In this document: positions 14,853 through 31,720 of the stretch, piece after piece
How the letters are laid out: every line of letters begins with the position of its first letter
Numbering within the stretch: position 1 is the first letter of the stretch
Origin: an uncultured Candidatus Saccharibacteria bacterium
GTDB lineage: Bacteria > Patescibacteriota > Saccharimonadia > Saccharimonadales > UBA7683
Direction: 5' to 3'
Length of the DNA stretch: 44,588 bases
Assembly: GCA_964632215.1 (NCBI GenBank)
Contig: CAZWBG010000001.1
Span: forward strand, 1-44,588
Notes under the pieces: generated by a model
Told to the model about the DNA's origin: nothing
The model's database searches: none
What the model saw: only the letters and a program-made list of their open reading frames with translations
Position numbers and translations under genes: made by a program

Positions 14853-15884
14853 TTACTCGGCTAGTTCGTAAGTAGCTTTGGCCACACGCTTGAACTGTGG
14901 CTTGCCCTGTAGGTTGAGCAAAATAGTTGTCTCACGTACCTGTCGGCTTTTGAGTACTTCACGGACAATATCGTCGCGGTGCATCGGCGCCTTAGACTTT
15001 TTAAGAATTTTGGCAATAATATCAGATACCGTACCTTTGCTGTAGCCCCACTCTGCAAGTGCGTAAATACCACGGCCGATGAGCACAAAGCGCTTGTCTT
15101 TAATAAGTTCGTTATGAATTGCCTGGGTGGTAACATCTTTTCGCTTGAAGTCAGATTCTTTGATCTTGCCAGCAATCTCTGAAAAGTGCATAGGTTTGCC
15201 ATTCTCTTGTAAAATTACATAGATTTTGTCACGGATGTTCTTTGGGTTCACCAAAGGCCACTTTACGTAACCCCATTGGTTCTTTAGGTGTGCAAGATGT
15301 TTGCTAAGGCTAGCCAAGGCCTTCACATGGTCGGGGTGCTCATAGCCGCTGAGCTGCTGGTAGAGTTCGGTAATAGTAACCGGTTGGCCGTGAGCTTTAA
15401 TGGCTTCTAAAATTGCATCAACTTGGCTTTTAACTTTTTTGTCGTCACCGTATTCTTTAATGCCAAGCGCGTGATAATAATCGTCATTCTCTTCAACAAC
15501 AGTGATTCCAGGTGCAAGAGTGCCTAGGAATGCCACATGGGCTTTGTCTCGTTCGTCACCAGACTTACTCATCTTTTTAGCAAGGTCGCTCACACGAGCA
15601 ACGCGGCCCATTTCTGAAAGCTGACGAACGAGTTCACGTTCAACTTGCTTAATATGTGGCAAATCGTCCTTCTCAGCTGCAAGCTTTAAGCGAATTAAAA
15701 TAGCTTTTTCAAGTTGTCGTACTCGTTCACGGGTAATGCCGAGCAACTCCCCTATTTGTTCGAGTGTTTCTTTGCGATCGTATAAACCAAATCGACGAGC
15801 AATAATCTCACGTTCACGATCACGTTCGATCGTTTCAACGATGTCCTTAGTTGCCTGTTTAATGTCGAGCTTGGTTTCATCCAT
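14853..15884 (-). CDS. Sigma70 region-4 HTH plus winged-HTH (HARE-HTH/RNAP delta-like) protein
   Basis: REREIIARRFGL..ETLEQIGELLGITRERVRQLE at the N-terminus. GKPMHFSEIA and HNELIKDKRFVLIGRGIYALAEW in the C-terminal half. Confidence 0.8.
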   Translation of the reverse strand: MDETKLDIKQATKDIVETIERDREREIIARRFGLYDRKETLEQIGELLGITRERVRQLEKAILIRLKLAAEKDDLPHIKQVERELVRQLSEMGRVARVSDLAKKMSKSGDERDKAHVAFLGTLAPGITVVEENDDYYHALGIKEYGDDKKVKSQVDAILEAIKAHGQPVTITELYQQLSGYEHPDHVKALASLSKHLAHLKNQWGYVKWPLVNPKNIRDKIYVILQENGKPMHFSEIAGKIKESDFKRKDVTTQAIHNELIKDKRFVLIGRGIYALAEWGYSKGTVSDIIAKILKKSKAPMHRDDIVREVLKSRQVRETTILLNLQGKPQFKRVAKATYELAE

Positions 15885-15931
15885 GGTTATATTCCTATTG
15901 AAGTTCTTTACAGTTATTGTAGATTATACCT

Positions 15932-15960
15932 ATTGTAATATATAAATTGTTTAAAGTCAA
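15932..15960 (-). promoter_or_regulatory. Sigma70 promoter for the HTH gene
   Basis: TTGACT-17-TACAAT on the minus strand, about 50 bp upstream of the start codon. Confidence 0.7.
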
Positions 15961-16090
15961 CATCAACTTCTTTATCAGATGTATGTAACTATTATAGCAC
16001 TAAGTAGACGACTTTAAAAATACCTTATTACCCTATATATCCAGATGTATATTAGTCAAGCTTATGGTATACCTTATAATTTCAACAAAT

Positions 16091-16138
16091 TAAAAAGCGC
16101 TCATGTGCAGCTCATCTTTCGATGGCGCGCAGAGCGCT
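16091..16138 (-). terminator. Intrinsic terminator closing the large RNA
   Basis: AGCGCTC (16096-16102) pairs with GAGCGCT (16132-16138), encloses CATC-GAAA-GATG on the minus strand and is followed by a U-run on the minus strand. Confidence 0.7.
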
Positions 16139-16961
16139 AGAGTGGTTGGGCTCAGGGAATTCCCTCATTTACCTCCGGGAGAGATTGGAGGTTTAGGGAA
16201 TTCCCTGAGCACCCTATGTACAGCGGAGCCGCGAAGCCATGCGTCTCGAACGCTATACAAGATGGTTGCCTCGGATCACTGGGCGGTTAGGCAAACAGTG
16301 ATCCGAGACTGACCGTTATAGGGGCGGAGGTCCCATAACGGCGTGTAGTGTCTCCAGTGGTAGTTGCCCATTCCCGATCCCCCGAGGGGAATAGTAGGCC
16401 ACTGGAGACGATATGGTGATAATAAATTATCACGCGATGTTGCGAGCTAAACTCGTATCCTCACTCGAGTGTCCCCTTGGGGACTTTCGTGCAAAAGCAC
16501 ACTCGAGATCTTAGGAGACAAGCAGGGGTATAACCCACTTTTTTATACTCAGGAATTCTATTCCAAGGCATAAATAGCTCGCTCAGAGACACTATAGTGA
16601 TGCAGAAATACCTGGGAGGGCGCAGTTCTGTGATCACGTTCGTATCTCAAGGTTTTGTGAGTAATATGACAAAATGGTACCGCGGTTGCGTGCATTCCAT
16701 GTTCATCATAGGGCAAACCAATACGGGCTGCAGGTTGTGGTCCGAAGGCCACTCCTTGTTGACTGAGAGATCACTGTCTCTCTAGTGTTGCCGTATTTCA
16801 CTCACGCAGGAGATGATCTGAGGTGAAATCAAGAAAAGAGTTCCGTCAATCCTTAGGTCACTTCAATATCTCCGTATTGTGTTGAGCCAAAGACTCGAAC
16901 CTAGATTCTTACAAAAAATCTACATTTGAGCCTTCGGCATTCCGCCAATTCTTAAGGTGCG
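16091..16961 (-). ncRNA. Candidate large (~870 nt) structured non-coding RNA of unidentified class
   Basis: Consensus promoter upstream and terminator downstream. No ORF over 70 aa. Perfect stems of 16, 12, 11, 9 and 7 bp. Several imperfect stems resolve as G-U pairs on the minus strand. Confidence 0.75.
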
Positions 16962-16967
16962 ATATGT

Positions 16968-16996
16968 ATTATACAGATAAGCAATACTTTTGTCAA
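16968..16996 (-). promoter_or_regulatory. Perfect-consensus sigma70 promoter
   Basis: TTGACA (16996-16991), 17-bp spacer, TATAAT (16973-16968). The next gene on this strand is more than 1 kb away and has its own promoter. Confidence 0.88.
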
Positions 16997-17013
16997 CGTA
17001 TGTTTGTGCGCTG

Positions 17014-19326
17014 CTACTTTTTAGTCTTTTTACGCCCAGCGAAACGTTTTTTAGCGGGAGCCTTCTCCAGCAGTTCTTTGGCTATTTCTTCGGTGATATC
17101 TTTAGGCTCAACATCTTTGGGAATTTTAGCATTCTTTTTGCCATCGGTAATATAGGGTCCATAACGGCCTTTTAGTACCTTTAGCCCCCCGCCGAAGTCG
17201 GCAATATTCTTCTCAGCTTCGGTCTTTAACTTCTCAGCGTATAGCGCTTTAGCCTCATCAAGCGTAATAGTATGAGGGTCGAGTGGTTTAATGCTGACAA
17301 ACAGCTTGTCTATCTGTATATAGGGTCCAAAACGACCAATATTAGCCTTAATATCTTGACCGTCGTCAGTTTGACCAACAACTCGTGGGAGCTTAAACAT
17401 CTCTAAGGCGTCTTCTAACGTGACGGTTTCTAGTTTGGAGCCAGTTGGAAGTGGTGCAAAACGAGGTTTATCTGTCTCGTCTTCGGTAGCACCTAGTTGC
17501 AACATGGGACCATAGCGGCCAAAACGGGCCAAAACAGGCTTGCCGGTCTTGGGATCAGTACCGATCTCTCGGGCTTGGGCTACCTCGCTACGCTTAATGT
17601 CTCCAGATTTTTCTATAAGATCGTGAAATGGTGTGTAGAAATCTTGTAGCATTTTGTTACGCTCAAGTTTGCCACCAGCAATTTCGTCAAATTCAGCCTC
17701 AACCTTAGCAGTAAAGCCGTAGTCGACTACCTGGTCAAAATGACCAGTTAGAAAGTCGCTGACTACTTGCCCGCTGGCAGTTGGTACTAATTTACCGCGA
17801 TCTGCACCAGTTTTTTCTTGTACAACCTCGCGCTGCACGGCTCCATTTTGTAGGTTGAGCGTGATAACATCACGTGGCTCACCTTCACCCTCGCCTTTTT
17901 GGGCATAGCCGCGCACCTGAACGGTATTAATGATGGTGGCGTAGGTAGAAGGTCGGCCAATGCCAAGATCCTCAAGCTTTTTAACCAGACTACCTTCGCT
18001 GTAACGAGCTGGAGGTCGGGCAAATATTTGGCGAGCACCGGCTGTTTGCAGGTCTAGGCTATCTTGCGCTTTGACCGCGGGTAGAATATCAGCTTCTTTT
18101 TTGCTACCACCATACACTTTTAGGAAGCCGTCGAAGAGAATCACCTCGCCCTTGGCTTCAAATAGTTCGTTGCCCGTAGAGACTACAATCTTAATAACTG
18201 TTTTTTCCAACTTAGCGGGTGCCATCTGGCTGGCTAGCGTGCGGCGACGAATCAGGTCATAAAGTTTTTGGTTGTATTCGTCACTACTGGCGTGCTCGAT
18301 TTTAACATCTGTCGGGCGAATTGCCTCATGAGCTTCTTGGGCACCACTTGCCTTGGTCTTGAAAGTTCGCACTTGATGATATTGTTTACCAAATTCAGAG
18401 GTAATATAGTCGGTCATTTGGGCGAGTGCTTGGCCACTGAGGTTGACCGAATCAGTACGCATATAGGTAATTTTACCTTCTTGATAGAGCTTCTGGGCGG
18501 CCGACATGGTGGCCTTGGCACTAAAGCCAAGCCGGCTGTTGGCATCTTGCTGCAGGGTACTAGTAGTAAACGGTGCACCAGGGTTGCGAGTGCTGGGGCT
18601 GGTGGTGACATCGGAAACTGTAAAGCTAGCGTTAATTAAGCTTTCTAAAAAGGCTTGGGCTTCCTCTTCCGTCTCGAAGCGTTTTGGTAGCTCAGCCTTC
18701 ATAGCTGCGCCTGCCACGCTAAATTCAGCAGTTACCTTAAAGACTGCTGAGCCAGCGAAAGCATCAATTTCACGCTCACGTTCTACGAGTAGCCGTACAG
18801 CTGGTGATTGAACACGCCCAGCAGATTTACCGCCGGGAACCTTTTGCCAAACAACTGGTGAGAGTTCAAAACCAACTAATCTATCAAGAATTTGACGGGC
18901 TTGTTGGGCTTGAACGAGACTCATATCTACGGTGCGGGGGTTTTTGACCGCCTCTTCGATCGCACCCTTAGTAATTTCGTGAAATACAATTCGCTTGGTA
19001 GTTTTTGGATCAAGCTTCAAGACCTCGCATAAATGCCAGGCAATCGCCTCTCCTTCGCGGTCTTCATCGGTTGCGAGCCAGACGGTCTCAGTAGTTTTGA
19101 CGGCTTTTTTCAGCTCTGCAATAACCTTCTTCTTTTCTGGATCAACCTCATACACCGTTTCAAAGCCAGCCTCAACGTTAATCGGCTCAGCTCCGCCTTT
19201 TGCTTTCTTAGCAATCGAACGTATATGACCCACGCTTGAGAGCACGGTAAAATCGCTACCGAGGTACTTCTCGATAGTTTTGGCCTTGGCTGGCGACTCT
19301 ACAATTACTAAGTTCTTTTTGCTCAT
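17014..19326 (-). CDS. topA: DNA topoisomerase I with C-terminal repeats
   Basis: LVIVESPAKAKTI, LATDEDREGEAIAWH, SAGRVQS, GKITYMRTDS (catalytic Tyr), GIGRPSTYA. Confidence 0.98.
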   Translation of the reverse strand: MSKKNLVIVESPAKAKTIEKYLGSDFTVLSSVGHIRSIAKKAKGGAEPINVEAGFETVYEVDPEKKKVIAELKKAVKTTETVWLATDEDREGEAIAWHLCEVLKLDPKTTKRIVFHEITKGAIEEAVKNPRTVDMSLVQAQQARQILDRLVGFELSPVVWQKVPGGKSAGRVQSPAVRLLVEREREIDAFAGSAVFKVTAEFSVAGAAMKAELPKRFETEEEAQAFLESLINASFTVSDVTTSPSTRNPGAPFTTSTLQQDANSRLGFSAKATMSAAQKLYQEGKITYMRTDSVNLSGQALAQMTDYITSEFGKQYHQVRTFKTKASGAQEAHEAIRPTDVKIEHASSDEYNQKLYDLIRRRTLASQMAPAKLEKTVIKIVVSTGNELFEAKGEVILFDGFLKVYGGSKKEADILPAVKAQDSLDLQTAGARQIFARPPARYSEGSLVKKLEDLGIGRPSTYATIINTVQVRGYAQKGEGEGEPRDVITLNLQNGAVQREVVQEKTGADRGKLVPTASGQVVSDFLTGHFDQVVDYGFTAKVEAEFDEIAGGKLERNKMLQDFYTPFHDLIEKSGDIKRSEVAQAREIGTDPKTGKPVLARFGRYGPMLQLGATEDETDKPRFAPLPTGSKLETVTLEDALEMFKLPRVVGQTDDGQDIKANIGRFGPYIQIDKLFVSIKPLDPHTITLDEAKALYAEKLKTEAEKNIADFGGGLKVLKGRYGPYITDGKKNAKIPKDVEPKDITEEIAKELLEKAPAKKRFAGRKKTKK

Positions 19327-21838: not shown

Positions 21839-21867
21839 TTGACAGTAGCTTATATCTATGCTAGTAT
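21839..21867 (+). promoter_or_regulatory. Sigma70 promoter divergent from dprA
   Basis: TTGACA-17-TAGTAT with an extended -10 TG. Confidence 0.75.
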
Positions 21868-21873
21868 AGTTCT

Positions 21874-22246
21874 TCGTAAGCGATACAACTTTAAAAGTAT
21901 CGTTTTCGTACCTTTTATACCCCATTGTAACATTCCGCTTTCGGGCGGAAATCGTTAGGAAGTCCTTAAGCGTGTCGAAAAAAGTTTTTACCCTCCACTT
22001 TTTGAGCATCCTTAGCATATAGGCACTTAGCCTGCTAAGAACGCTTTAGGATCTTCTAACCCCTTTAACCCTACCCTTCTCGCTCCTTAGCGGAAAGAGT
22101 ACTTCAAAGTGAGCCCACAAAGGTATCTGCCTCGGCAGATGGCGGCTAGACATTCGAGAGAGACATGTCTCAGTACGCTTCGCTCGGGTGGGTTGAAGGG
22201 AGAATTCAGCGCCCAGCAGTGCCCACCCCTGCTGGGCGCTGTTTAT
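21874..22246 (+). ncRNA. Candidate ~370-nt structured RNA
   Basis: Bounded by a promoter and a 13-bp terminator stem, with no plus-strand ORF of 60 aa or more inside. Long stem 22061-22076/22186-22200 encloses smaller hairpins. Confidence 0.5.
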
Positions 22247-22248
22247 TT
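22207..22248 (+). terminator. Intrinsic terminator
   Basis: CAGCGCCCAGCAG pairs perfectly with CTGCTGGGCGCTG (13 bp), followed by TTTATTT. Confidence 0.75.
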
Positions 22249-22250
22249 CC

Positions 22251-22279
22251 TTGACTTTTTATTCTACTTTTGCTATAAT
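22251..22279 (+). promoter_or_regulatory. Sigma70 promoter for the downstream ORF
   Basis: TTGACT-17-TATAAT immediately after the terminator. Confidence 0.75.
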
Positions 22280-29365: not shown

Positions 29366-29441
29366 GGCCCCGTCGTCTAGTGGTTAGGATATCTGGTTCT
29401 CATCCAGAAGATCGCGGGTTCGAATCCCGCCGGGGTCACCA
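29366..29441 (+). tRNA. tRNA-Glu (anticodon CTC)
   Basis: Acceptor GGCCCCG/CGGGGTC, anticodon arm TCTGG-TTCTCAT-CCAGA, T arm GCGGG-TTCGAAT-CCCGC, encoded CCA. TTGCAT-17-TAACAT promoter at 29314-29342. Confidence 0.97.
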
Positions 29442-30936
29442 AAGAAGACTCATCACGCGTTGGTGAGCCTTTTTGATTTGCAGCCAATCTGTAAAGTGAG
29501 CTCAATTTTGCCGTTCCAAACTGCCTTTTAGCAAGATCATAACTCAGACCTTCTGGAAACACTAGATTTTGGTAAATGATGCGATGCTCAACAGATGCAT
29601 CAAGCCAGATTCGGGGTGCGTTCGACATAAATTGGAGCGCGTAGTCTATTGAGTTGGTTTTGAAATCATTCATAGATCCTACCTCATCAAGTTGTTTACG
29701 CGTTCTTGTTTCTTCTGCATCTAAGTTATTAATCAGCGCTTTCTTTTCATCTGTAGTAATTTGACCGCTCACAAGCATCTCAACAGTCTTATTCTTGCGG
29801 ACTGTGAGACTCTCTAGGGCCTTGTGTAGTTGCTTCTGCTTAGTAGCGAGGGTCTGTGTTTCATCACGCCATACGCGCACGATCATCTCCTTCAGAAACT
29901 TCTCCATACCTGGGTCGGGTTTTAGGGAATTGAGCAACTCAATAAATTGCTTGTGCATCTCATCGGGTTTAATAGACGGCACATGGCATCGCGAGCAATG
30001 GTACCGCGGCGACGGTATTCCTGAGCCATTGCGAGGGCTGCTCCCCGTCATTGGTTTTTCGCAATTAGTGCACAGTAAGAATCTTCGTAAAGGAAATTCT
30101 GGATTGTTCTGTTTATATTTTGCTGTCGAGTTCTTGTTTTTCTTGAGTACGTCCTGGTTACGATAAAAAGTACTAGGGGATATAATTCCACCGAACTTCG
30201 AAGGTAATAGCTGTCCGTCAGTATGTTGGCTTTTTTCTAGGCCCGCATAGATTGGATTTCTCAAAGCCTTACTAATAGCCTGTATTTGCATCTTTTTCCC
30301 TGAAGCTGACTTTAGTCCGATCTCTTCACAAAGCACTACAAGCCCCGCCATTGTGTGAGCCCCCGACGAGTACGCTTCAAGTATCGTAGCCATATTGTCG
30401 GCTATTCCTTCAATTGGCTCAACGGTCGATCTTCCCAGGACGTCTCTGACGTTCCTCAGGCCTAAAGGAGCCTTACTCATTCGATAGCCTTCCTTTGCCT
30501 GGCGTTTCATATTTTCCTTCACGCGTGCGGACTTAAGGCGATTATCATGATTGGCGATTACAGCTTCAAGGCTCTGAACAAGCTCGTCATTCAGATTCTC
30601 ATCTAAGCTTGAGTTTATGTTTTTATACTCGACGCCCGATAGAGACAACCTTGCCCTTAATGCAAAGAAATCAACTGCACTCCGAGTCAGGCGATCCGTT
30701 TGATAGGTGATTAGGTACGAGATTTGATTTCGACTAGCTTCAAGAGCTGACAACATCTCTTTCATTGCAGGTCGTTCTAGTGTTTTTGCCGAAGCACCGT
30801 CGTCATGATAGATCTTTTCCACCAGAACATTATTGCGTGATGCCCATTCTTGACACATAAATTGCTGCGTCTCAAGACTCGCACCATCAACCTGCTTAAG
30901 CGTAGAGACTCGAAGATAGATTACAGCACGTTTCAT
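29377..30936 (-). CDS. Large serine recombinase (integrated-state form, last 19 aa from antisense tRNA)
   Basis: Catalytic YLRVS, DRLTR, GYRMSKAPLG, LRNPIYAG, zinc ribbon C-x2-C...C-x2-C (CTNC, CSRC) and a coiled coil. Confidence 0.92.
   Translation of the reverse strand: MKRAVIYLRVSTLKQVDGASLETQQFMCQEWASRNNVLVEKIYHDDGASAKTLERPAMKEMLSALEASRNQISYLITYQTDRLTRSAVDFFALRARLSLSGVEYKNINSSLDENLNDELVQSLEAVIANHDNRLKSARVKENMKRQAKEGYRMSKAPLGLRNVRDVLGRSTVEPIEGIADNMATILEAYSSGAHTMAGLVVLCEEIGLKSASGKKMQIQAISKALRNPIYAGLEKSQHTDGQLLPSKFGGIISPSTFYRNQDVLKKNKNSTAKYKQNNPEFPLRRFLLCTNCEKPMTGSSPRNGSGIPSPRYHCSRCHVPSIKPDEMHKQFIELLNSLKPDPGMEKFLKEMIVRVWRDETQTLATKQKQLHKALESLTVRKNKTVEMLVSGQITTDEKKALINNLDAEETRTRKQLDEVGSMNDFKTNSIDYALQFMSNAPRIWLDASVEHRIIYQNLVFPEGLSYDLAKRQFGTAKLSSLYRLAANQKGSPTRDESSLVTPAGFEPAIFWMRTRYPNH
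29436..29442 (+). repeat. attL core TCACCAA
   Basis: Identical to 34540-34546 and overlaps the tRNA ACCA terminus. Confidence 0.8.
29447..29474 (+). terminator. Element-supplied terminator for the tRNA, antisense within the recombinase CDS
   Basis: CTCATCA-cgcgt-TGGTGAG stem followed by TTTTT. Confidence 0.6.
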
Positions 30937-31130: not shown

Positions 31131-31345
31131 AGTGTCATATTGACCCTTCCTGCTTGCTCCCGTCCAGACACCTTCGTCGCGGGGTTATTATCTGTTATTC
31201 AGACAAGCTTTGTGATATTGGCTAAACTACGCTTATATGTTTCTATTATATCACTTTTTCGGTGTTGCTACGCTATAATAAGCAACAAGTCGCTAGTGCG
31301 GCGGTAGCCTAGAGCCACGTATATAACGAAGGTATGGTTATAAAT

Positions 31346-31440
31346 CCACGAAAAGAAACAGCTCGTCATGAGTACCTCTTTTCGTGGTTACTACTGGAAA
31401 CGGTAGTAGGGGCGCAAGCCTCGCTCGTGGCGGGCTTTTT
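31346..31440 (+). promoter_or_regulatory. Structured leader/attenuator-like RNA
   Basis: 11-bp stem 31346-31356/31377-31387 and 13-bp stem 31360-31372/31424-31436 followed by a U-run, plus GAAA- and GCAA-capped hairpins. Confidence 0.55.
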
Positions 31441-31477
31441 AGTTTGTCACGGCCACAAACTAAAAAGAGGAGGGTAC

Positions 31478-31720
31478 ATGGCAAAGAAACCACTATTTTA
31501 CGAGGGTATGACAAACGGAGAACGCTTACGATCGGTAATCTGGGTTATCGTTATTCTCGTAGCGCTTGGAGTTTTTCTATTTGGTGCGTTTTTTCTACCT
31601 CGTTCGTCTGGCAACGATACAAAGCAGGATCCAGGTGAAAGTGACTACGAATATCATCAACGTATTCAAGGTCAGGACGAGGAGCAATATAAAGACTGTG
31701 GCTTTAAGCCAACTTGCTAG
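31478..31720 (+). CDS. Small single-pass membrane protein
   Basis: GAGGAGG RBS before ATG 31478, one TM helix, C-terminal CGFKPTC. Confidence 0.65.
   Translation: MAKKPLFYEGMTNGERLRSVIWVIVILVALGVFLFGAFFLPRSSGNDTKQDPGESDYEYHQRIQGQDEEQYKDCGFKPTC

Follow-up and report, generated by a model that had tools for sequence, protein, structure and literature searches.

The window analysed in this study, i.e., a stretch of 44,588 nt from contig CAZWBG010000001.1 of an uncultured Candidatus Saccharibacteria bacterium (assembly GCA_964632215.1), raises the question of what lies directly downstream of topA, where the longest stretch without an open reading frame (ORF) in the 929-kb, 15-contig source genome is found. 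On the minus strand, this stretch belongs to a string that comprises dprA, a methyltransferase gene, topA, the stretch itself, the gene of a 343-aa protein with Sigma70_r4 and HARE-HTH domains (the sigma-region-4/HARE-HTH gene) and the gene of an 840-aa TrwB/VirD4-like ATPase. We conclude with considerable confidence that it is an independent gene of approximately 869 nt for a large structured non-coding RNA (ncRNA) of an uncatalogued family, which was found in one family of Saccharimonadales (Saccharibacteria, candidate phyla radiation) only. The initial annotation, which was made from the letters alone, had proposed either a member of the GOLLD, ROOL, OLE or MISL classes or a new class. The first branch was not borne out by covariance-model searches (cmscan), while the second is carried by the RNA's own promoter and terminator, by a helical core that compensatory changes preserve across 11 genomes or contigs and by a homologue that is transcribed far above its neighbours. 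The outcomes that had been named beforehand as speaking against the proposal were a match to a housekeeping RNA or an intron and a lack of covariation; neither was found.

The transcription signals are those of a separate unit (coordinates of all features are listed in Table 1). The promoter that had been proposed is present, with all 12 consensus positions matched, and it begins 18 nt past the topA stop codon. Among the homologues, all those whose upstream region was read have a near-consensus promoter, TTGAC-N17-TAnnnT, at a constant distance from the conserved 5' end, which is invariant and of the GCACCUUAA type. The transcription start is predicted to be G16960 because the -10 element stands 7-8 nt before the G(C/U)AC(C/A)UU that is invariant in the homologues. 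The terminator that had been placed at 16138-16091 was also recovered in the sequence; a simple terminator scan misses it because its loop is long. It is kept in two relatives, G001 and G002, whose loci end with its homologue, AGCGCUCU...GAGCGCU-UUU. The window RNA is predicted to form one transcription unit that runs from 16960 to approximately 16092 on the minus strand. As was claimed initially, no ORF exceeds 70 aa: the maximum is 64 aa for the sense and 69 aa for the antisense strand. Neither these nor the largest ORFs in the relatives matched Pfam, and tblastx revealed no conserved reading frame, so that ORF length, Pfam and tblastx were all negative for coding.

Homologues were reached through synteny, since whole-RNA BLASTN against 40 relatives and a single-sequence nhmmer search against 80 syntenic intergenic regions both found nothing. 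The arrangement of topA followed by the sigma-region-4/HARE-HTH gene is conserved across the order with a gap of approximately 170 to 2400 nt between the two genes, and several of the long gaps in the window's own family carry a common 5' block, for which a covariance model, R1, was used. R1 matched eight of the 16 genomes of the family (five of its eight genera), i.e., the window's genome and seven others, and all of the matches with a checkable context stand just downstream of topA. There were no matches in 385 other genomes of the order, nor in genome and metagenome scans that covered 160 loci of other families. Of 12 extra contigs, R1 matched three, precisely the ones whose gap is long and free of genes; in the remaining nine, no long gap could be read after topA, and there was no match. 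The RNA family thus has at least 11 members (eight genomes and three metagenome contigs), its presence varies even within a genus, and in all of the homologues the RNA is placed between topA and the sigma-region-4/HARE-HTH gene. The related loci belong to metagenome-assembled genomes (MAGs) of Candidatus Saccharibacteria/Saccharimonadales. When metagenomes were scanned with the downstream protein, the only relatives obtained had no more than 72% identity; they are members of other families and all lack the RNA. Approximately 90 further family-level protein clusters at 76-82% identity exist, and the 12 extra contigs were taken from these. Several contigs of relatives end inside the RNA region because hairpins fragment MAG assemblies, as was seen in DNA run X4, where the 12-bp perfect hairpin (window 16282-16299) is the exact point at which the assembly is interrupted and changes strand.

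The slot after topA is itself a hot spot. Its content among loci L053-L132 depends on the lineage: some leave it nearly empty (approximately 170-300 nt), while others fill it with pilin-like genes, with small membrane-protein genes that have strong Shine-Dalgarno sites, with other small ORFs or with this RNA. The long topA gaps in other families are not this RNA because pilin-like or small membrane-protein genes fill the slot there. Family members without the RNA (L046:369-1098, L038:382-863, L054 and L055) carry a different non-coding sequence of 480-730 nt, CUACUCAARAACCGAGAGA...GAGUUCCGCAG..., which is shared by genera g7 and g8, follows a topA terminator hairpin, has no obvious promoter and may be another structured element.

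What the members share is a small core. After the predicted start, the order of the elements is leader, P1, J1/2, P2, UGA, P3, J3/4, P4, J4/5 and P5, often followed by GCCAAYCUC, in which P denotes helices and J the conserved single-stranded junctions between them. The junction consensus among the members is a CUCAA-rich J1/2, UGA, AAYAUCGC for J3/4, and CAYCUA. P3, with the consensus GCGAG.../...CUCGC, encloses a domain of 57-147 nt in the homologues; the block that spans J3/4, P4 and J4/5 (16410-16441) is the sole interior part that BLAST detects in the relatives, and a long hairpin that is equivalent to P5 follows P4 in 10 homologues.

Compensatory change was examined helix by helix. In a sequence-only MAFFT alignment of eight homologues, 93.4% of the P1 cells were paired and 13 of the 19 pairs had changed on both sides; the covariation score was 0.647 compared to 0.286 for shuffles, none of 500 shuffles reached the observed values, and slid controls were only 27-43% paired. 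For P3, in MAFFT alignment A7 with the interior excised, the corresponding values were 87.5% of the cells and seven of the eight pairs, and none of 500 shuffles reached the observed pairing or covariation score, with one sequence mis-registered by MAFFT. Pairing was complete (100%) in the lower 4 bp of P4, where UA was exchanged for CG and GC for AU; the alignment limits the test of the upper part. In hand-anchored alignments of 10 homologues, the four closing pairs of P2 had changed on both sides and still paired, and the closing 8 bp of the P5-equivalent were all paired and covarying. In the hand-anchored P1-P5 core of 11 sequences, pairs formed in 346 of 357 cells, and both sides had changed at 33 of 34 positions; sliding its eight-sequence version reduced the pairing to 33-42%. 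The pairing figure of this core is biased because the helices were chosen from per-sequence folds; its informative point is that the helices stand at equivalent places relative to the conserved junctions. Moreover, a strain variant of the G012 homologue (locus L062) in runs X21 and X26 carries four changes. Two of these, T2307C and A2319G, affect the opposite partners of a single predicted pair and turn it from U-A into C-G; of the others, one falls within an internal loop and one leaves A.C in place of an A-U pair. Compensatory change was thus found in P1, P3, the lower helix of P4, the core as a whole and within a species. DNA runs offered near-identical strains only, without informative variation.

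The fold of the whole RNA is unusually stable, with a minimum free energy of -359.8 kcal/mol compared to -254.7 +/- 12.4 kcal/mol for shuffles (z = -8.5), and at least three perfect inverted repeats of at least 10 bp occur in only approximately 0.5% of the genome's 900-nt windows. Three of the stems that had been read from the sequence, 16150-16165/16195-16210 (16 bp), 16270-16281/16296-16307 (12 bp) and 16350-16360/16399-16409 (11 bp), were confirmed as perfect. Two others are present but had been drawn too small: 16464-16472/16499-16507 sits within a longer pair of 16 nt with 81% complementarity, and the supposed 7-bp stem 16313-16319/16335-16341 actually has 11 bp (16312-16322/16332-16342). 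Such an abundance of palindromes could also arise without any function at the RNA level, i.e., the slot could be an insertion hot spot that gathers inverted repeats (quasi-palindromes or decayed mobile DNA), or the repeats could act in the DNA as cruciforms or protein-binding sites. Both strands fold about equally well with few G-U pairs, the stems are often perfect, the interior is fully turned over between genera and unrelated small genes occupy the same slot in other families, all of which this explanation would accommodate. Yet each hairpin is unique in the genome, which means that they are not dispersed repeats, i.e., copies of repetitive extragenic palindromic (REP) sequences or miniature inverted-repeat transposable elements (MITEs). 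P1 keeps G-U pairs, and P3 closes 57-147 nt, which DNA cruciforms cannot explain. The promoter, the conserved start and the terminator are retained, a homologue is abundantly transcribed, the pair change within a species is compensatory, and 0.9-1.5 kb of junk is unlikely to persist in a 0.9-Mb genome. We therefore give an explanation without RNA function very little credence.

Expression was observed for the G012 homologue, which was found in at least 18 metatranscriptome runs from wastewater and activated sludge that belong to many studies. Twelve of these runs were compared with a 2.8-kb stretch that consists of the 3' half of topA, the RNA and the downstream gene. In nine of the 12, contigs were present only within the RNA (L062:2217-2704, at 99-100% identity) and none covered topA or the downstream gene; two more added small flanking pieces and one covered everything. 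This homologue is transcribed well above its neighbouring genes. Its RNA contigs are unstranded and broken at hairpins; they start just past the P1 hairpin and end within the terminator hairpin, as is expected if the assembler breaks at palindromes. These data bear on whether the element acts only in cis, as a 3' untranslated region or stabiliser of topA, as a transcriptional insulator or as a read-through regulator of the sigma-region-4/HARE-HTH gene. A role of this kind would suit the fixed position between the same two genes in all of the homologues, the interval between the topA stop codon and the RNA promoter, in which no terminator was seen when the sequence was read, and run X10, in which the contigs run past the terminator. 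It fits poorly with the RNA's own near-consensus promoter at a fixed spacing to the conserved 5' end, with the strongly conserved tandem promoters that the downstream gene has of its own, with the coverage of the RNA without topA and the downstream gene in nine of 12 runs, and with the relatives that lack the RNA but retain both flanking genes. A purely cis-acting element is thus a highly improbable reading.

The RNA was compared with all 4227 families of Rfam 15 using cmscan, at the gathering threshold for the window, at E<=10 for positions 15900-17100 and at E<=1 for six homologous loci. There was no match in the RNA region at the gathering threshold, and the relaxed thresholds gave only meaningless hits to miRNA-type hairpins. 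The covariance models of GOLLD (RF01998), ROOL (RF03087) and OLE (RF01071) matched neither the window nor the six homologues. With the models for group I and group II introns, the only match was a 19-nt plastid D5 match with E = 7.4 on the opposite strand. The element lies between genes, is equipped with a promoter and a terminator of its own, and has no ORF for a reverse transcriptase or homing endonuclease. ARAGORN found no tRNA-like gene in 15900-17100. The statement that hallmarks of RNase P, transfer-messenger RNA (tmRNA) and introns are missing thus held, and both of these housekeeping RNAs are encoded elsewhere in the genome (RNase P RNA at C4:25922-26422 with 238 bits and tmRNA at approximately C1:420820-421215). 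A highly diverged form of a known class, i.e., GOLLD, ROOL, OLE, HEARO/omega RNA, a group I or II intron or RNase P, would account for the size and the ornate look only, while the absence of Rfam matches at these thresholds, the separately located RNase P RNA and tmRNA, the phage collection and IMG/VR, in which nothing similar to the RNA was found, and the absence of an adjacent tRNA, reverse transcriptase, IscB or TnpB gene speak against it; we consider it barely credible. The family is uncatalogued in Rfam 15, and it belongs to a known kind, the large orphan structured bacterial ncRNAs. The literature searches revealed no described Saccharibacteria RNA of this kind, and the only Saccharibacteria RNA that was listed by Weinberg (2017) is lysM-TM7.

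Among the closest likenesses are GOLLD and ROOL, which are also very large (approximately 580-800 nt), multi-helix RNAs with few invariant nucleotides, a patchy distribution and a function that is not evident from the sequence. The reported average length of ROOL is 581 nt (PMC5737381), which the window RNA exceeds. Unlike those two, which are often found in prophages or phages and beside tRNAs, it was found neither near tRNAs nor in prophages, nor in the phage collections that were searched; it has a fixed chromosomal slot in one Saccharimonadales family and a periphery that is far more variable in length. OLE is similarly lineage-restricted, ornate (approximately 600 nt) and transcribed as its own unit, and is thought to be a ribonucleoprotein (RNP) scaffold. 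However, the OLE sequence is highly conserved over its full length, whereas only the core of approximately 150 nt is conserved here, and OLE is linked to oapA-type partner genes, whereas no partner gene visibly co-varies with this RNA; the domains of its neighbours are topoisomerase, Sigma70_r4/HARE-HTH and TrwB/VirD4-like, and no search directed at OapA was made. Variable arrays of structurally conserved but sequence-diverse hairpins were described for the ncRNA that is associated with the UG27 reverse transcriptase; these consist of repeated units beside a reverse transcriptase and accessory genes in prophages (bioRxiv 10.64898/2026.09.22.753630). In contrast, the hairpins of the RNA studied here are not repeats of one unit, have no adjacent reverse transcriptase and are chromosomal between core genes. 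In the window itself, there is a second promoter-to-terminator non-coding unit, which is divergent from dprA (21839-22279, plus strand) and has the loop AGUGCCCACCCC at 22218-22229, one mismatch from the motif GGUGCCCACCCC. It resembles the RNA studied here in its Saccharibacteria host, its dprA-topA neighbourhood, its layout and the lack of an Rfam match, but it has approximately 400 nt, whereas the RNA downstream of topA is twice as long, occurs in one family only and has no invariant loop.

The new family is unusual in that its small core covaries while its hairpin periphery is hypervariable. Across the members, the RNA ranges from approximately 600 to 1500 nt, of which 0.5-1.3 kb outside of the core are replaced between genera. 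Comparing the members showed a core that compensatory substitutions preserve and peripheral hairpins that are exchanged, gained or lost. In the window RNA, two extra domains (16873-16657) are not found in the other homologues; their layout is like that of the P2-P3 unit but there is no sequence similarity to it (z = -0.7). By inspection, the distal hairpins in the relatives keep the same order and have related C-rich loops (UCCCGCC, CCCACCC and ACCUCCGCC) on unrelated stems. Four loci, G001, G002, L238 and L242, consist of two tandem units because they contain an internal terminator and a second promoter; the latter is conserved as TTGACATTATAGCYAAGSTGTGCTATAAT in G001, L238 and L242, while G002 has an internal terminator and promoter of its own. 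The window has no second unit, yet its terminal hairpin is of the same type as those of the two-unit loci G001 and G002.

Loops of this kind could indicate a multi-hairpin sponge or decoy in which exposed C-rich, G-poor loops (CCUCC, UCCCGCC and CCCACCC) titrate a G-rich partner, either the Shine-Dalgarno regions of mRNAs or an RNA-binding protein, like CsrB/RsmZ, 6C RNA or RsaE. UCCCGCC-, ACCUCCGCC- or CCCACCC-type loops do recur on unrelated stems in most homologues. The freely varying number of hairpins and the strong promoter are also shared with the CsrB/RsmZ sponges, which are chains of hairpins whose number varies by lineage. On the other hand, C makes up 29% of the loops, no more than of the RNA as a whole, and the sole depleted base is G, as is generally the case in structured RNAs. 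While all of the CsrB hairpins present GGA for CsrA, no single loop motif occurs in every hairpin here; a sponge would not need a conserved multi-helix core with the long-range P3, and no partner was found. We regard a sponge as improbable. Several other structural candidates were tried and rejected. A helix that closes the 5' and 3' ends, GCACCUU with a downstream GGGUGC, was found in three members at non-equivalent positions and not in the members with GCACAUU, and a leader-loop kissing interaction, GGCGGA/UCCGCC, was found in two members only. Internal duplication or tandem diverged copies were dismissed since there was no similarity between the putative units in the window, G001 and G002 (z ~0). 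A tRNA-like 5' module was negative in ARAGORN, and the T-loop-like GGUUCGAGUC is not conserved in the homologues. Likewise, an enrichment of C-rich loops above the RNA's overall composition was not observed.

Returning to the reading as an independent ncRNA gene, several observations weigh against it or narrow what it can claim. The covariation support is limited to approximately 150 nt of the core, and the other approximately 700 nt are unalignable even within a genus, which is why the peripheral stems rest on single-sequence folding. Many of the stems are perfect and very long, which fits a fast turnover of hairpins better than a tertiary fold that has been kept for long. The presence is patchy, with half of the 16 genomes of the family lacking the RNA and variation within genera, so the RNA is dispensable. 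No RNA run contains this organism's own copy; it is probably transcribed here too, as the promoter, the terminator and the homologue suggest. Nor do the RNA data fix the strand because Logan contigs carry no direction. The plus strand folds to -351 kcal/mol, close to the value of the sense strand, and the G-U pairs that the initial annotation had noted on the minus strand are therefore weak evidence, insufficient by themselves for identifying the strand. On the sense strand, the unpaired bases are 37% A, 28% C, 12% G and 23% U, compared to 19% G on the antisense strand; a low content of unpaired G is the usual signature of structured RNAs and supports the minus strand. We therefore place the RNA on the minus strand because of the promoter and terminator, the depletion of unpaired G on the sense strand and the G-U pairs in the covarying P1. 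Lastly, neither a partner protein nor a target nor a catalytic signature was found, and any mechanism is accordingly conjecture.

Tentatively, the RNA might act in trans as a folded scaffold, either in an RNP or in an RNA-only assembly. In that case, function or the binding of a partner would be centred on the conserved junctions of the 5' core, with the fast-changing hairpin arms as structural periphery. We consider such a scaffold possible, though it falls well short of being probable. Its role is possibly accessory, perhaps related to conflict or interaction, rather than housekeeping, as the patchy presence, the fast turnover of the arms and the filling of the slot with pilin or small accessory genes elsewhere suggest. 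A bolder version, which we think rather unlikely, is that of a new, modular class of giant RNAs of episymbiotic Saccharibacteria, with an RNP- or ribozyme-like 5' core, exchangeable arms and sometimes a second unit, that would take part in conflicts over cell-cell contact, phages or DNA uptake. The conflict role is proposed because the RNA lies inside a dprA-topA-sigma4/HARE-VirD4-like string in a slot that holds a type IV pilin gene elsewhere.

Table 1. Coordinates of the features of the RNA gene, its neighbours and the internal promoters of homologous loci (window positions unless a locus is given).
Feature	Coordinates	Strand	Description
topA ORF	17014-19326	-	ends directly 5' of the RNA promoter
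sigma-70-type promoter	16968-16996	-	TTGACA 16996-16991, 17-nt spacer, TATAAT 16973-16968; 12/12 consensus match
5' leader and predicted start	16939-16960	-	GCACCUUAAGAA...; conserved G(C/U)AC(C/A)UU block
P1	16886-16938	-	11-bp closing helix GCCGAAGGCUC/GAGUCUUUGGC, variable tip
J1/2	16874-16885	-	single-stranded UCAACACAAUAC; consensus CUCAAMA.AAUA, conserved
Two lineage-specific domains	16657-16873	-	GGAGAU...AUCUCC and GUGAGUG...UACUCAC; between J1/2 and P2; single-sequence fold only
P2 hairpin domain	16586-16648	-	GAGAUAC.../...GUGUCUC
J2/3	16585-16583	-	UGA
P3	16442-16582	-	long-range helix GCGAGCUA/UAGCUCGC; closes 141-nt variable domain including stem 16464-16507
J3/4	16441-16434	-	AACAUCGC
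P4 hairpin	16433-16416	-	GUGAUAA-UUUA-UUAUCAC
J4/5	16415-16410	-	CAUAUC
P5	16350-16409	-	long hairpin, 11-bp perfect closing stem
Distal hairpin 1	16342-16312	-	loop ACCUCCGCC
Distal hairpin 2	16309-16268	-	loop includes CUAACCGCC
Distal hairpin 3	16266-16211	-	fold
Distal hairpin 4	16210-16150	-	16-bp perfect stem
Intrinsic terminator	16092-16138	-	hairpin 16138-16096 (AGCGCUC...GAGCGCU), GAAA-capped inner stem, U-run 16095-16092
Tandem promoters of the sigma-region-4/HARE-HTH gene	15932-16060	-	outside the RNA; strongly conserved
sigma-region-4/HARE-HTH gene	14853-15884	-	3' neighbour of the RNA
Internal promoter TTGACATTATAGCYAAGSTGTGCTATAAT	L035 (G001) ~1525-1497; L238:1216-1244; L242:2388-2416		starts second hairpin-rich unit; intrinsic terminator precedes it in G001

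Downstream of the RNA, the last approximately 180 nt of the intergenic region are the only part that can be aligned across all members of the family. Within the locus, no other non-coding DNA comes near the conservation of the tandem promoters of the sigma-region-4/HARE-HTH gene and of the sequence that separates them; long stretches there are invariant in seven genomes of the family, and this conservation suggests that the gene may be under tight and unusual control. Elsewhere in the window, a LOOT RNA (RF03000) was found at 31306-31422 on the plus strand with 68.8 bits compared to a gathering score of 46.4; it overlaps the start of the ORF 31334-31720, and near it are a tRNA (29366-29438) and a 519-aa ORF (29377-30936). 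Additionally, two further stretches of the same genome (G000), C3:1-715 and C4:23157-23950, are ORF-free and strongly structured (z = -10.1 and -7.1, respectively, in mononucleotide shuffles), with no Rfam match except for a tRNA at the edge of the C4 stretch.

Bacterial RNAs that are longer than approximately 500 nt and have conserved multi-helix folds are rare; ribozymes, RNP scaffolds and self-assembling cages make up most of those that are understood. One more large structured RNA would extend this short list. Its host lineage is uncultivated and genome-reduced, so that each kilobase is expensive, and the RNA family is expressed in nature. With its conserved core and exchangeable periphery, the RNA is a natural experiment in the growth and shrinkage of large RNAs. 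Moreover, it provides a concrete target in the Saccharibacteria of wastewater, for which the metatranscriptome data that would address the strand, the transcript ends and the abundance already exist.

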